Part shown: positions 39,854 to 43,917 of the stretch, in pieces
Layout: the number at the start of each line of letters is the position of its first letter
How positions within the stretch are numbered: position 1 is the first letter of the stretch
DNA from: an uncultured Eubacteriales bacterium
GTDB lineage: Bacteria; Bacillota; Clostridia; Oscillospirales; Acutalibacteraceae
Direction of reading: 5' to 3'
Assembly: GCA_934726435.1 (NCBI GenBank)
Contig: CAKVDR010000001.1
Span: forward strand, 1 to 45,482
Length of the DNA stretch: 45,482 nucleotides
Notes under the pieces: generated by a model
Seen by the model: only the letters and a program-made list of their open reading frames with translations
Database searches by the model: none
What the model was told of the DNA's origin: nothing
Position numbers and translations under genes: made by a program

Positions 39854-40792
39854 GTGAAAAAATTTAAATTAAGTGCGGTGATATTGTCAATCCTGAGCCT
39901 GGGAGTGGCGTGTAACGGCTTTGCATGTGCTTCGAAAGAGCCGGAAGAAATGTCAACATTTTGCGAATATGAACCTATTGCTGATCTTGAAAATGCATGT
40001 AATTCTGAAAGTGATAATAATTTAAGACTTTTACTAAACAAACTTAAAAATGTTACATCAAAAAAATTACCTAGGACGGTTATAGATTTTATTTTTATAT
40101 GTGATAGCGAAAAAAATTCAGGCCCATTTTTAGATTTTTTAAGTTCAGAAGTTGTGAGACTTATTAAAGAGGGAAAAATAACAGAATCTCAATATATGTT
40201 TGAAGTTTACAATATAGCTGTTGAAAAAGTGATTAAAAAAGTGCCTTATAGTGGTTTTGGAGTAATAGAAGTACCCAAATTTTCTAAAGATAAACCTAAA
40301 GACGAACTCAAAGATAAATCTATAGATAAACCTAAAGACAAACTTAAAGATAAATCTATAGATAAACCTAAAGACGAACTTAAAGATAAATCTATAGATA
40401 AACTTAAAGATGAACTTAAGGACAAACCTGAAGATAAATCTATAGATAAACTTAAGGATGAATCTAAGAACGAACTTAAAGATAAACCTAAAGATGAACT
40501 TAAGGATGAATCTGAAGATGAACCTATTGTCGATCTTGAAAATGCATGTGAATCTGAAAATGATAAAACTTTAAAATTTTTAATTAATGAACTTAAAAGC
40601 GTTGTATCGAGTGACTTCCCTAGTAATGTTAATGATTTTGTTGCCTTAAGTAGCGATGAAGAACGCTCAGGTGAATTTATAAGTTATTTATATTCGGAGT
40701 TTACTAGACTTATGGATGAAGAAAAAATAGAAGAAGCTGGATATATGTATCAAGTTTATGATATAGCTCTTTATAATGCATTGTATAAATAA
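39854..40792 (+). CDS. Secreted protein: two copies of a roughly 90-aa domain separated by a K/D/E-rich tandem-repeat linker
   Basis: GTG start with an AAGGAG RBS. The signal peptide is ILSLGVACNGFACA-S. Domain 1 begins EPIADLENACNSESDNNLRLLLNKLKN and domain 2 begins EPIVDLENACESENDKTLKFLINELKS. Confidence 0.7.
   Translation: MKKFKLSAVILSILSLGVACNGFACASKEPEEMSTFCEYEPIADLENACNSESDNNLRLLLNKLKNVTSKKLPRTVIDFIFICDSEKNSGPFLDFLSSEVVRLIKEGKITESQYMFEVYNIAVEKVIKKVPYSGFGVIEVPKFSKDKPKDELKDKSIDKPKDKLKDKSIDKPKDELKDKSIDKLKDELKDKPEDKSIDKLKDESKNELKDKPKDELKDESEDEPIVDLENACESENDKTLKFLINELKSVVSSDFPSNVNDFVALSSDEERSGEFISYLYSEFTRLMDEEKIEEAGYMYQVYDIALYNALYK
40288..40520 (+). repeat. In-frame imperfect 24-36-bp tandem repeats encoding KDK(SID)KPKDELKD units
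   Basis: Units of aaagataaatctatagataaacctaaagacgaactt are repeated about 6-7 times inside the 39854-40792 CDS. Confidence 0.85.
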
Positions 40793-40826
40793 AATTTTAA
40801 TTTTATAATTATTAAAGTGAGGAACA

Positions 40827-41159
40827 ATGAGTAAATTAAAATCAATAATAGTGCCGATTTTGAGTTTAGGGGTGGCTTGCAGCGGGTTTGCATGCGCTTC
40901 AAAAAGATGTGTGCCTAAGTTGCCCGGAAGAGATATCATCGTAGAGAGTGGAATGCAAAATTATCAGAATTTTGATCAGGTTCCTGTTAACACACCGAGA
41001 TTTGTAGCACCTGAATCGTTTGAAGATATCGTGGATTTTGAAGATTTTTACTCTATGCTTGTAGAGGAAGGTAAAATTTCTTTGAAAGAAAAAGAATTTT
41101 TGATAGAATATGATAAGATCCTAGCTGATATACTCAACGGACTCAGAATCATTCATTAG
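40827..41159 (+). CDS. Small secreted protein, same subfamily as the 39854 gene
   Basis: The signal peptide is ILSLGVACSGFACA-S. The C-terminal LVEEGKISLKEKEFLIEYDKIL resembles the RLIKEGKITESQYMFEVYNIA and RLMDEEKIEEAGYMYQVYDIA segments of the neighbouring gene. Confidence 0.65.
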   Translation: MSKLKSIIVPILSLGVACSGFACASKRCVPKLPGRDIIVESGMQNYQNFDQVPVNTPRFVAPESFEDIVDFEDFYSMLVEEGKISLKEKEFLIEYDKILADILNGLRIIH

Positions 41160-41274
41160 GTGAATATTTCCTAAGAGCGATGTAAGATTTTGCGGATTTG
41201 TTGTTTATCAAAAAGGTTAATAAGTTTGTTTTTAAGTAAAGTGTAAATTCCAAGGTAAAGAGAGAGGATTACTA

Positions 41275-41666
41275 ATGAAAAATCTCAGATTAAATGCAAT
41301 TATAGCATCAATTTTAAGTTTAGGAATCGTTTGCAATGGTTCAGCTTTCGCTATGAAAAATTGAAAGTTATGTTAGAGCAAAAGTTGGAAGAATTTTATC
41401 AACTTAGTATATATTGGCCCAAAGAATTAAGAGAATCGTATGATCGATTAGGGTGGAAAAAAGCACAAATAGATGTTGACAGTTTCATTGAAAGAATTTT
41501 GAAAAGTGATAGTGATCTTCTAAAGATTTTAAAACATCTGAGAAATTTTTCAGAAAGTCAGGAGCTCAGCGAAGAATACGGTATTATGAAAAATATCGTG
41601 TATATCTGTTGTAGATTAATAGATAATGTCAAGGTAATTGATTACTATTCAACAGTAGCTCAATAA
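41275..41666 (+). pseudogene. Frameshifted member of the signal-peptide cassette family (off state caused by an A5 run)
   Basis: ATG 41275 encodes MKNLRLNAIIASILSLGIVCNGSAFAMKN and then reaches TGA. The remaining protein (KLKVMLEQKLEEFYQL...) continues in another frame, which is track ORF 41331-41666. Adding one A to the A5 run at 41356-41360 restores a single ORF. Confidence 0.6.
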
Positions 41667-41693
41667 ATTATTTTTATAATAAGGAGGCAATTA

Positions 41694-42197
41694 ATGAAAA
41701 AATTTAAATTAAATGCAGTTATAGCATCAATTTTGAGTTTAGGAATCGTTTGCAGTGGTTCAGTATTTGCTTCTAGAGTAGAAGGGAAAGATTCAAGAAG
41801 AATTGGAAAAAAGGTTGTTATTTGCACAAAAAAAGATATGGAAAAAGCATGTGAAAGAGAAGAATCTAGAGCACGTATTACAGTAAGAGGAAGAAGAGTA
41901 ATTAATATTCCAAAGAAAAAAGGATTAGACGAGTTATTAAAAGACCTTATTGAATGCAAAGAAAACTGGATAAATTTAAGGCCTCTATTTGGCACGGAAG
42001 GATGGGGTGAATTGCCACTGACTAGTGAAGAGTTCACTTCAAAATCCATAAAATGTTATGAAGGACTTTGTTGTGTTTTAAATAATTTGAGGGTTCAATC
42101 ACTTTTAAACGGATTGAAACATGAGTTCGACATTTTTATTGACCTTCAAAATGTTTGTGATGAAATTTATAATAAATATAACGAGGAAAAGAAATGA
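41694..42197 (+). CDS. Small basic secreted protein, paralogue D (conserved C-terminal helical domain)
   Basis: AAGGAGG RBS. The signal peptide is MKKFKLNAVIASILSLGIVCSGSVFA-S. The C-terminal domain is shared with the next two genes. Confidence 0.7.
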   Translation: MKKFKLNAVIASILSLGIVCSGSVFASRVEGKDSRRIGKKVVICTKKDMEKACEREESRARITVRGRRVINIPKKKGLDELLKDLIECKENWINLRPLFGTEGWGELPLTSEEFTSKSIKCYEGLCCVLNNLRVQSLLNGLKHEFDIFIDLQNVCDEIYNKYNEEKK

Positions 42198-42829
42198 AAA
42201 ATAGTAAATTAAATGTAGTTGTATCGTCAATTTTGAGTTTAGGAATCGTTTGCAGTGGTTCTGTATTTGCTTCTAAAGTAGAAGGAAAAGATTCGAGAAG
42301 AATCGGAAAAAAAGTTGTTATTTGCACCGCAAGTGAGATGAAAAAAGGTGCAGAGATGTTAAAAATAAAACCTAAAAAGAAGATTGTAGAAGAACCTAAA
42401 CTTAGAAGATGCAATGCGACATTAAATAGTAGCACATTTGAAAAAGCAAGAATAGCACCGAAAACCCAAAAATCTAAAATACATAGTGTGAAAAAAATAG
42501 AAAGTAAACCAGTTAATAAATCAGAAGAAAAAAAGATTACTATAGGAACTATAAAAATATTACTTGATGAGAAATTAGATGCTATCAATAAATGTAGCAA
42601 AGAGTGGGTAAATTTAAGATCTCTATTTGGTATGCAAAGATTCAAAGAATTACCACTAAGTAGTGAGGAATTTATTTCAAAATCTTTATTATATCATGAT
42701 GAACTTTGTCGTATTTTAATCAGTTTGGAAGCACAATCAGTTATGAATGGGCTTAAACATGAATCTGACATTTTTTCTGATCTCCAAGGAATTTGTGATG
42801 AAATTTATAGTCAATATTATAATGGGTAA
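42194..42829 (+). CDS. Small basic secreted protein, paralogue E
   Basis: The start overlaps the stop of D in an ATGA. Its first roughly 45 aa are nearly identical to D at the nucleotide level. It has a longer Lys-rich middle region and the same C-terminal domain. Confidence 0.7.
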   Translation: MKNSKLNVVVSSILSLGIVCSGSVFASKVEGKDSRRIGKKVVICTASEMKKGAEMLKIKPKKKIVEEPKLRRCNATLNSSTFEKARIAPKTQKSKIHSVKKIESKPVNKSEEKKITIGTIKILLDEKLDAINKCSKEWVNLRSLFGMQRFKELPLSSEEFISKSLLYHDELCRILISLEAQSVMNGLKHESDIFSDLQGICDEIYSQYYNG

Positions 42830-42834
42830 AAGAA

Positions 42835-43383
42835 ATGAAAAAGAATAAATTAAATGCAGTTATAGCGTCAATTTTAAGTTTAGGAGTAGTTTGCAGTGGT
42901 TCTGCATTTGCTTCTAAAATAGGTGAAAACGGCTCAAAAGAAGAAATTAAAGGACGAGCTGTTCTTGGTGAAAGGTCGTCAAATGTAAGGAATACCGCAA
43001 AATTAAAAGGACCTAAAAAAGAGGATGAACTTAGAAGATATAACGCAGCAAGATCAAGGATTATAGCAGCTATTAAATCAAGGAAAAAAGAATTTGCTGA
43101 ATATAAAACTAAGATAAGTTATGAGTTAAGGTATCTTATTGAATGTAGTGAAGATTGGAAAGATTTGAAACCTCCATTTGATATGAGAAGATGGCATGAA
43201 TTGCCTCTAAGTACTGAAGATTTTGTTTCAAAATCTATAAAGTGCCATGATGAACTTGAGAGTATTCTGAGTTCTTTGATGCTTCATTCAGTTATGAATG
43301 GATTAAAATATGAAGCTGGAGCTTTTCTTACTCTTAAACGACTTTGTAATAGAATTTATAATCGATATTATTTTATAATTTAG
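42835..43383 (+). CDS. Small basic secreted protein, paralogue F
   Basis: It carries the same signal cassette. The C-terminal domain has WKDLKPPF, ELPLSTEDFVSKSIKCHDEL and NGLKYE. Confidence 0.7.
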   Translation: MKKNKLNAVIASILSLGVVCSGSAFASKIGENGSKEEIKGRAVLGERSSNVRNTAKLKGPKKEDELRRYNAARSRIIAAIKSRKKEFAEYKTKISYELRYLIECSEDWKDLKPPFDMRRWHELPLSTEDFVSKSIKCHDELESILSSLMLHSVMNGLKYEAGAFLTLKRLCNRIYNRYYFII

Positions 43384-43422
43384 TGTGGGCCTAGTAATTT
43401 ATATATTTTAACGTGATTTTTT

Positions 43423-43917
43423 ATGAAAAAGAATAAATTAAATGCAGTTATAGCATCAATTTTGAGTTTAGGAGTAATAACCTGAAGTGGTTCAGCGTTT
43501 GCTTCTCGCTCAGGAAGTTCTAATAAAATGCCTATGGATACAGGAGCTGGAAAAGACGGCAGCGGTGATTTTGTAGGTTTTAATGACATTGCAAAATTAT
43601 TTATGGCTGCAGCTTGGCTATATGAAAATGAAGGAATTAAAATAGAACAAATTTTAAAAGAACTTAAAAAGGGAAAATTTGGTGAAATTAAAAATGAACC
43701 ATATAGATTACCAACTGGCCGAGAATTTGCAACATATATGGTAGCGAATAGAGAATTAATGGATACAAAAATTAAGTATTGGCATAATCTTATACACAAG
43801 TATAATCTCGAAAAAGAAATGAACCTTTTGGTTGAGCTTCTTGAAGTGGCATCAAATTCGTTGAAAAAATTTGATCAATCATGGCCAGAAATGACATCGC
43901 ATCTAAAATTAAAATAA
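43423..43917 (+). pseudogene. Cassette-family member interrupted by an in-frame TGA at the conserved Cys codon, with an unrelated C-terminal domain
   Basis: It reads MKKNKLNAVIASILSLGVIT, then TGA (43483-43485), then SGSAFASRSGSSNKMPMD, in frame with track ORF 43528-43917. There is no Shine-Dalgarno sequence before ATG 43423. Confidence 0.55.

Follow-up and report, generated by a model that had tools for sequence, protein, structure and literature searches.

A tandem family of predicted secreted proteins in uncultured human-gut Clostridia with a conserved leader and rapidly diverging cargo

A stretch of 45,482 nucleotides (nt) from an uncultured Eubacteriales bacterium (GenBank assembly GCA_934726435.1, contig CAKVDR010000001.1), referred to here in its entirety as the window, carries seven co-oriented genes, A to G, at positions 39854-43917 of the forward strand. 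Each gene opens with a leader of 25-28 codons of the form MKKxKLNAVIASILSLG..C.G..FAS, and the leaders start at 39854 (A, with a GTG start codon), 40827 (B), 41275 (C), 41694 (D), 42194 (E), 42835 (F) and 43423 (G). An earlier reading made from the DNA alone (the sequence-only reading) had treated this leader as a cassette reused in front of unrelated mature domains, and had offered gene conversion or recombination between the repeats on the one hand, and selection for an export or sorting signal on the other, as explanations. We found that the seven genes belong to a family present at one chromosomal site in several related gut bacteria, in which the leader changes little at the amino acid level and the remainder of the protein changes very quickly. 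Purifying selection on the leader peptide appears to account for most of this pattern.

Gene A (39854-40792; 312 amino acids (aa); leader 39854-39934) was recognized from its open reading frame (ORF) and translation, and its product matches the profile of the A/B cargo class with E = 7e-62. It contains two A/B-type helical domains joined by a KDK/KDE repeat with a 12-nt period (40249-40596). This repeat comprises about 29 KDK/KDE/LKD tetrapeptide units of 60-89% identity on the forward strand, and the domain segments at 39965-40093 and 40514-40642 are 77% identical at the nt level. Gene B (40827-41159; 110 aa; leader 40827-40901) encodes a short A/B-type cargo (AB profile E = 2.8e-21). The nearest relative of its leader is that of the B orthologue in the uncultured species UMGS1703 (84%), and the short subtype occurs elsewhere too, as shown by a 108-aa orthologue (P0038; 5873-6199 of locus L094).

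In gene C (41275-41666; leader 41275-41352), translation in the leader frame meets a stop codon at 41362-41364, and it is the +2 frame that encodes the C-type cargo, up to 41666. A single A added to the A5 run at 41356-41360 would mend the reading frame, and the same frameshift is present in two independent assemblies (L001 and L002). The linker found in the intact C-type relatives P0022, P0034 and P0036 is also missing. Programmed frameshifting was considered and rejected: since the ATG-AAA-AAT site has no canonical slippery heptamer and the cargo is without its usual linker, gene C was scored as a probable pseudogene. Gene D (41694-42197; 167 aa; leader 41694-41774) encodes a basic linker and a helical domain of ~90 aa, and the start of gene E (42194-42829; 211 aa; leader 42194-42274) overlaps the D stop codon (ATGA). 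D and E hold a 35-nt exact block (41727-41761 and 42227-42261), and the first 32 nt of gene F (42835-43383; 182 aa; leader 42835-42915) and gene G are exactly alike.

Gene G (43423-43917; leader 43423-43506) encodes a G-type helical cargo and has an in-frame TGA at 43483-43485, at the position of a conserved Cys codon that reads TGC in the intact orthologues P0003 and P0004 (...LGVITCSGSAFAS). No Shine-Dalgarno-like motif is visible upstream of G. Reading the TGA as selenocysteine, or by genetic code 4, was rejected in view of the TGC of the orthologues and of the long ORFs in the window, which fit housekeeping families under translation table 11. Three of the seven genes therefore look decayed or shortened, C being frameshifted, G carrying a nonsense codon and B belonging to a short subtype.

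Conservation of the leaders begins at the ATG or 1 nt before it, and the upstream regions and ribosome-binding sites differ from gene to gene. An 18-nt leader core gave 6 matches at ≤3 mismatches against 0.44 expected, a count that none of 100 shuffles reached. The leaders of C to G are 78-91% identical to each other at the nt level, and those of A or B are 60-76% identical to the rest. Where two leaders encode the same amino acid, C to G share the codon in 80-95% of cases, B is intermediate, and A is at the level expected by chance from the codon usage of the island. The proposal that all seven leaders are conserved at the nt level thus stands for C to G, whereas A and B resemble the others mainly in amino acid sequence. 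The related proposal that the leader is more conserved than its cargo was borne out, as the mature regions of C to F reach 45-67% nt identity and 21-51% protein identity; pairwise alignment of the mature parts across A, B, C-F and G revealed no relation.

Relationships among the cargo emerged when leader-stripped sequences were clustered and compared as profiles. With 52 sequences available (a few near-duplicates or fragments were omitted), the clusters AB (16 members), CDEF (28 members) and G (7 members) were robust, and P0027 was a singleton. Profile-profile comparison with hhalign linked CDEF to AB (P = 2.7e-5, 66 columns), CDEF to G (P = 7.2e-5, 49 columns) and AB to G (P = 0.015, 32 columns), and all three pairs aligned in the same register, on the motif (F/L)P-x-[TS]-x-x-EF and the helices that follow it. 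Reversed profiles gave P values of 0.16-0.26, and column shuffles gave P ≥0.16 for the two significant pairs and ≥0.028 for AB-G; three of 30 column-shuffled controls scored 130 over 3-9 end columns and were treated as numerical artefacts. Small cargo profiles were suggestive, and the links became significant only once 42 leader-bearing protein clusters, described below, were included.

The predicted structures agree with these links. In the AlphaFold model of D, residues 76-167 have a predicted local distance difference test score (pLDDT) >90 and form helices at 78-89, 96-101, 111-120, 122-138 and 142-166, and in the model of a G-type orthologue residues 50-159 have a pLDDT >90. When the two models were compared by the order and length of their helices, the LP loop was followed in both by helices of 10, 17 and 24-25 residues with pLDDT >90. 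The region between leader and helical domain is of low confidence in both models, consistent with disorder. The leader genes and their cargo have no family match in Pfam, NCBIfam or PHROG. The best reading of the profiles and models is that the A/B, C-F and G cargo would belong to one divergent superfamily, rather than to the three or more unrelated types initially supposed.

Selection on the leader was assessed by comparing the window with the orthologous loci L086, L088 and L090, using synonymous (pS) and non-synonymous (pN) divergence and the ratio of non-synonymous to synonymous rates (dN/dS). Synonymous divergence was much the same in the leader (pS 0.23), the linker (pS 0.26) and the helical domain (pS 0.26), and non-synonymous divergence was 0.04, 0.24 and 0.16, giving dN/dS values of 0.16, 0.93 and 0.55, respectively. 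Between the window and locus L094, cargo pN is ~0.3 and serS pN is ~0.012. For paralogous leaders in L091, L094 and L003, and likewise for window A and B, pS ranges over 0.41-0.69 and pN/pS over ~0.25-0.5. In L094, two genes from different cargo classes have an identical 26-residue leader peptide although their leader sequences differ at 9 synonymous sites. Given equal pS in leader and cargo, low leader dN/dS and these 9 synonymous differences, we therefore regard purifying selection as the general cause of leader conservation. Of the two explanations offered by the sequence-only reading, selection for an export or sorting signal is thus the one that fits as the main cause, with the qualification that the signal is peculiar to this family.

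The reach of the leader was determined with a leader-only profile searched exhaustively against 1.84 billion representative proteins. It matched 42 clusters (about 42 at 50% identity) with E ≤1e-3, all at the N-terminus of proteins of 67-381 aa. A peptide-pattern scan of 241 million metagenome records found the leader at only 3 loci, and neither leader nor cargo was present in 78 serS loci of other genera. A search with a cargo-only profile returned 7 proteins, all of them family members. Two further searches were less informative: a back-translated strict leader DNA pattern had no match in 185,579 species genomes, which shows only that the exact motif is rare, the pattern being too strict (the UMGS1703 leaders, which carry CGGS and FAA, escape it), and a word-index homologue search with F returned 4 proteins without D and E, the index being too insensitive here. 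By these searches the leader is specific to one family and is not generic to the species.

The array occupies a fixed position, always lying between serS, which is followed by two conserved secreted-protein genes, and a group of differently led genes, termed H-type, with dut-mreBCD. Across four species, the number of leader genes varies from 1 in L004 and 4 in L003 to 7 in the window and 14 in L094, and L091, an 11-kb contig that is array throughout, holds at least 13. In L094 (array at 5003-13150), the array opens with A and B, followed by five further AB genes, then three C, three DEF and finally G, an order collinear with the window. L091 (1-11104) has a lineage-specific leader end, CSSSVCAS, and one of its genes (5516-6025) has cargo without a leader. 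Collinear classes with local expansions point to tandem duplication and divergence, or birth-and-death evolution, and do not fit the cassette shuffling that had been suggested. The family is restricted to one small group of related, uncultured Oscillospiraceae/Ruminococcaceae from the human gut.

The layout of the leader, with MKKxK, ~14 hydrophobic residues and [AV]-x-A at positions 24-26, fits the rule for Sec export and cleavage by signal peptidase I (SPase I), which asks for a positively charged n-region, 10-15 hydrophobic residues in the h-region and a c-region with small residues at -1 and -3. Among 56 leaders, position -1 is Ala in 54, with no site found by the script in the other two; 50 leaders have Val or Ala at position -3, 3 have Gly and 1 has Ser, and position +1 is mostly Ser. 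The leader is most likely a Sec signal, with predicted SPase I cleavage after [AV]-x-A at about residue 26.

Taken together, these results make it probable that A to G represent a multigene family peculiar to this lineage, whose products are small, secreted and helical and in which the signal is kept by selection and the rest diverges. Each member would consist of a Sec-type signal, a disordered charged linker and a helical domain of ~90 residues containing (F/L)P-x-[TS]-x-x-EF, and the family would gain and lose members through tandem duplication, deletion and decay of genes. The leader would look like a reused cassette because it is the sole part under strong purifying selection. With a neutral linker and a helical domain under weak or diversifying constraint, paralogues would become unalignable as the leader persists. 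As a second layer, unequal crossing-over or conversion of short tracts may occasionally take place at the exact blocks of 32-40 nt that leaders have in common. The family, the homology within it, its synteny and the pattern of selection are shown here, and the export route, cleavage site, single-operon arrangement and recombination are inferences.

Several points weigh against this interpretation. The low leader pS among window C to G (0.24, below the interspecies serS pS of 0.29-0.35, although the C, DEF and G classes are older than these species) is drawn from ~18 synonymous sites per leader and from pairs that are not independent. The inter-class cargo links have moderate hhalign probabilities of 63-75%, and the AB-G link is weak when taken alone. 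The D and G models were matched by helix order and length only, not superposed, and neither had a Foldseek match in the PDB at E <1 (best E = 3.2 and 1.6). The signal-type check was rule-based, and simple rules alone underlie the predicted export and cleavage. Finally, Cys20 is kept in 53 of 56 leaders, for which a plain SPase I signal gives no account.

The low synonymous divergence of the C-G leaders is among the observations that would be expected of a recombining cassette, homogenized or re-joined to cargo by conversion or unequal crossing-over between direct repeats. We consider this unlikely as the main cause. Where an amino acid column is invariant across D, E, F and the corresponding orthologues, the codon is shared between paralogues in 86% of leader comparisons versus 61% of cargo comparisons (Fisher P = 1e-4, with non-independent pairs), and between orthologues in 85% versus 81%. 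Mosaic leaders are also seen across species: the window G leader is nearer to those of window F and D (88-91%) than to leaders of the G type elsewhere (74%), 83_AB and 91_4 have leaders of CDEF appearance, and the variant CGGS.FAA is common to 03_A and 03_DEF. Against this, leaders track their cargo between the window and the L086/L088/L090 lineage, in that G retains its extra codon, E its MKN start and F/G the sequence AAGAAT, and leaders from the same genome but of different class are only slightly more similar (0.772) than leaders of the same class from different genomes (0.749). The exact blocks between leaders must likewise be set against a conservation that starts at the ATG with none upstream, a cargo-class order kept between species, an orthologue pS that is the same in leader and cargo, and the high pS with conserved peptides in the leaders of L091, L094, L003 and window A/B. 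Gene conversion or recombination thus finds weak support in the codon sharing and pS of C to G, where some homogenization of leaders in the window lineage is possible, and is unlikely as the main driver.

Two individual cases were examined for conversion. The tract shared by D and E, previously described as ~135 nt of near-identical sequence, is 87% identical over 155 nt in a repeat search and only ~90% identical over its first 135 nt, with 14 mismatches counted. It encodes a conserved N-terminal motif, RIGKKVVICT, which takes the form RIGRRITIY in UMGS1703. Recent conversion of E by D was rejected, as synonymous variants in the tract follow orthology: those of window E match L088 E and not window D, and those of window D match L086 D. 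Conversion of the F leader by G was set aside as well, their likeness being explicable by derived changes in the L086/L088 F leaders.

A possible recombination product is L093, a 1.9-kb metagenome scaffold from another sample (ERZ28615872; protein P0008), which carries a D leader with E cargo. Its positions 1-260 correspond to window 41588-41850 and 42088-42350, with the join inside the 35-nt D/E block and the D cargo lost. The scaffold joins the end of C, the D upstream region and the 5' part of the D leader to the E cargo, and beyond the junction it matches the window at 99.9% identity. The scaffold represents either a real unequal crossover, as cassette recombination would predict, or an assembly chimera, and as a single scaffold joined at a 35-nt repeat it may be an artefact.

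The leader could instead be a specialised signal, conserved because a partner of its own recognizes it (a sorting factor, or a dedicated signal peptidase of the SipW or another kind) or because it is released as a bioactive peptide; we regard this as improbable. Known points of comparison are the YSIRK and KxYKxGKxW signals, SipW, and the enterococcal pheromones, which derive from signal peptides. The leader dN/dS of 0.16, the restriction to one family and the near-invariant Cys20 would suit such a role, as would the C-x-G-x-[AV]-F-A-S c-region of the A-G leaders, which recurs in the otherwise different neighbouring H-type leaders. An ordinary constrained Sec signal beside a very fast-evolving cargo would look alike, however, and neither the window nor the sequences flanking related loci showed a partner gene. 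The YSIRK-G/S and KxYKxGKxW models of Pfam and NCBIfam do not match the leader, and no GG cleavage motif was found within it. More narrowly, Cys20 and C-x-G-x-[AV]-F-A-S might mark a dedicated route, through variant lipidation plus a second cleavage or through a dedicated peptidase, or the cleaved leader might itself be a bioactive hydrophobic peptide. This is a rather remote prospect which, if true, would define a new class of family-specific signal in gut Clostridia.

Cys20 would also be explained if the proteins were lipoproteins modified at this residue, forming a variable surface lipoprotein array like Mycoplasma Vlp or S. aureus Lpl. Of the 56 leaders, 53 have a Cys between positions 16 and 24 with an S/G-rich stretch after it, a placement typical of lipoprotein signals, and a relaxed PROSITE-like rule accepts 14 of 56 leaders (...LG[VA]AC, including A and B). 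This reading is nonetheless improbable, as the strict lipobox [LVI][ASTVI][GAS]C occurs in 0 of 56, the residue before the Cys is mostly Val, Ile or Thr, three family members have no Cys, and 54 of 56 leaders keep the [AV]-x-A-S site that lies six residues further on. Finally, the idea that the leader is the species' ordinary signal peptide, present on many unrelated proteins, can be set aside as extremely improbable: neighbouring secreted proteins (38278, 39270, 44141 and 45098) likewise end in ...AFAS or ...YAS, but the leader occurs in only 42 clusters among 1.84 billion, all small and all clustered ones in three linked cargo groups bar P0027, it is found at just 3 metagenomic loci, and the other signal-bearing ORFs of the window (14907-15767, 15901-16917, 38278 and 39270) are without it.

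A family of secreted proteins held together by its signal and arranged in tandem has precedents, and the closest bacterial analogue is the lpl cluster of the S. aureus nuSa-alpha island. That cluster is a Firmicute island of co-oriented, tandem signal-peptide paralogues with lineage-variable copy number (Tsuru & Kobayashi 2008, PMC2568036; Nguyen et al. 2015, PMC4470592), and each lpl ORF contains a conserved nt segment proposed as a site of homologous recombination, duplication and diversification (PMC2568036, PMC4470592). A to G are likewise co-oriented tandem paralogues, with a copy number that varies by lineage (1, 4, 7, 14 and at least 13). In lpl, however, the conserved segment is central with variable 5' and 3' flanks, whereas in A-G it is the 5' leader. 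The Lpl proteins are also true lipoproteins with a DUF576 core, and their paralogues can still be clearly aligned, whereas A-G have a noncanonical lipobox, no known domain (an Lpl/DUF576 core was not found by Pfam or NCBIfam) and a cargo that has diverged to the limit of detection.

Conotoxins combine a conserved signal with a hypervariable mature protein. The same is true of the mussel CRP-I peptides (PMC4558851). Both resemble A-G in being rapidly diversifying multigene families in which the signal varies far less than the mature part, and differ in being eukaryotic and Cys-rich, where A-G are bacterial, with helical domains of ~90 residues and a probably operon-like array. Literature on a bacterial precedent for a conserved signal with a divergent mature part yielded mostly eukaryotic families. 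The Mycoplasma Vlp, Vsa and Vsp loci are clustered genes with a conserved signal-peptide 5' end and divergent mature parts; they have a conserved 5' untranslated region and promoter, switch through phase-variable tracts or site-specific inversion, and encode lipoproteins with repetitive C-termini. In A-G, by contrast, conservation starts at the ATG, upstream regions differ and the strict lipobox is absent. No switch element was seen for A-G, no recombinase gene is among the annotated window ORFs, and the sole homopolymer event is the A5 frameshift of C. Leaders of ribosomal natural products (double-glycine, Nif11-type) are similar in being conserved ahead of divergent cargo in tandem genes, but they are non-Sec and end in GG, whereas the leaders of A-G are composed of n-, h- and AXA-type c-regions. 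The combination of conserved signal, divergent cargo and tandem paralogues is thus already well known, and it is the protein family that is new, not the mechanism.

High dN/dS, copy-number change and pseudogenes are as expected of proteins that face a host, phage or competitor, making the family a candidate source of strain-level interaction factors. As an unannotated, rapidly evolving secreted family of ~42 clusters in arrays of 1 to 14 or more genes, it also offers a clean case study.

The surrounding window is the replication-origin region of a Firmicute, with polC, dnaA, gyrB, gyrA, yidC, mnmE, mnmG, rsmG and serS. Its SerS is 96% identical to those of UMGS1703 and UMGS1750, two uncultured human-gut Ruminococcaceae species, and ≤73% identical to those of other Oscillospiraceae and Acutalibacteraceae. 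Exact copies of window proteins are present in human-gut metagenomes, one of them a Hadza sample. The G+C content drops 3' of serS from ~38-40% to ~30%, and 11 small signal-peptide ORFs come after this gene. Two of these lie 5' of the array (38278-39144 and 39270-39827, forward strand), have their own signal peptides and no family match, and are always 5' of the array in L003, L004, L084 and L094. A strong promoter-like site (39209-39237, forward strand; TTGACA-17-TAAAAT with an upstream TG, 11/12 matches) precedes the 39270 gene, and a terminator-like hairpin with a 15-pair stem and a T-run follows G (43921-43955, forward strand). With no terminator-like site between 39209-39237 and 43921, a single transcription unit may possibly start at the promoter-like site and run through gene G.

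Elsewhere in the window, three tandem forward-strand ORFs (13188-13529, 13859-14248 and 14261-14689) have similar N-termini of ~75 residues ending in ...ELSExDLxxIxGG, with divergent hydrophobic C-terminal parts, in a patch of 28-31% G+C. We take these N-termini to resemble Nif11-type or double-glycine leaders, and the ORFs are probably a second set with conserved leaders and divergent cargo, encoding bacteriocin-like precursors.

Downstream of the array, two H-type genes (44141-44485 and 45098-45397, forward strand) are 86% identical over 295 nt (43957-44251 versus 44914-45208). The shared stretch comprises ~184 nt of upstream sequence, a leader of their own (MKI[VI]KKIFVLSTSAILGL.FC.GTAFAS) and a few codons, so that, unlike in A-G, the upstream region is conserved. 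Their mature parts are unalignable, with an LRR[ST] motif in both, and orthologues occur in L003, L004, L086 and L094. A lone complete 5S ribosomal RNA gene (44590-44706, reverse strand, 83 bits) lies between them with no adjoining 23S gene; in L086, a 5S-like stretch likewise follows the H gene. Because a 77-nt exact repeat that includes a terminator hairpin (44482-44558) recurs at the very end of the window (45406-45482), the sequence suggests a second copy of the unit just past this point.

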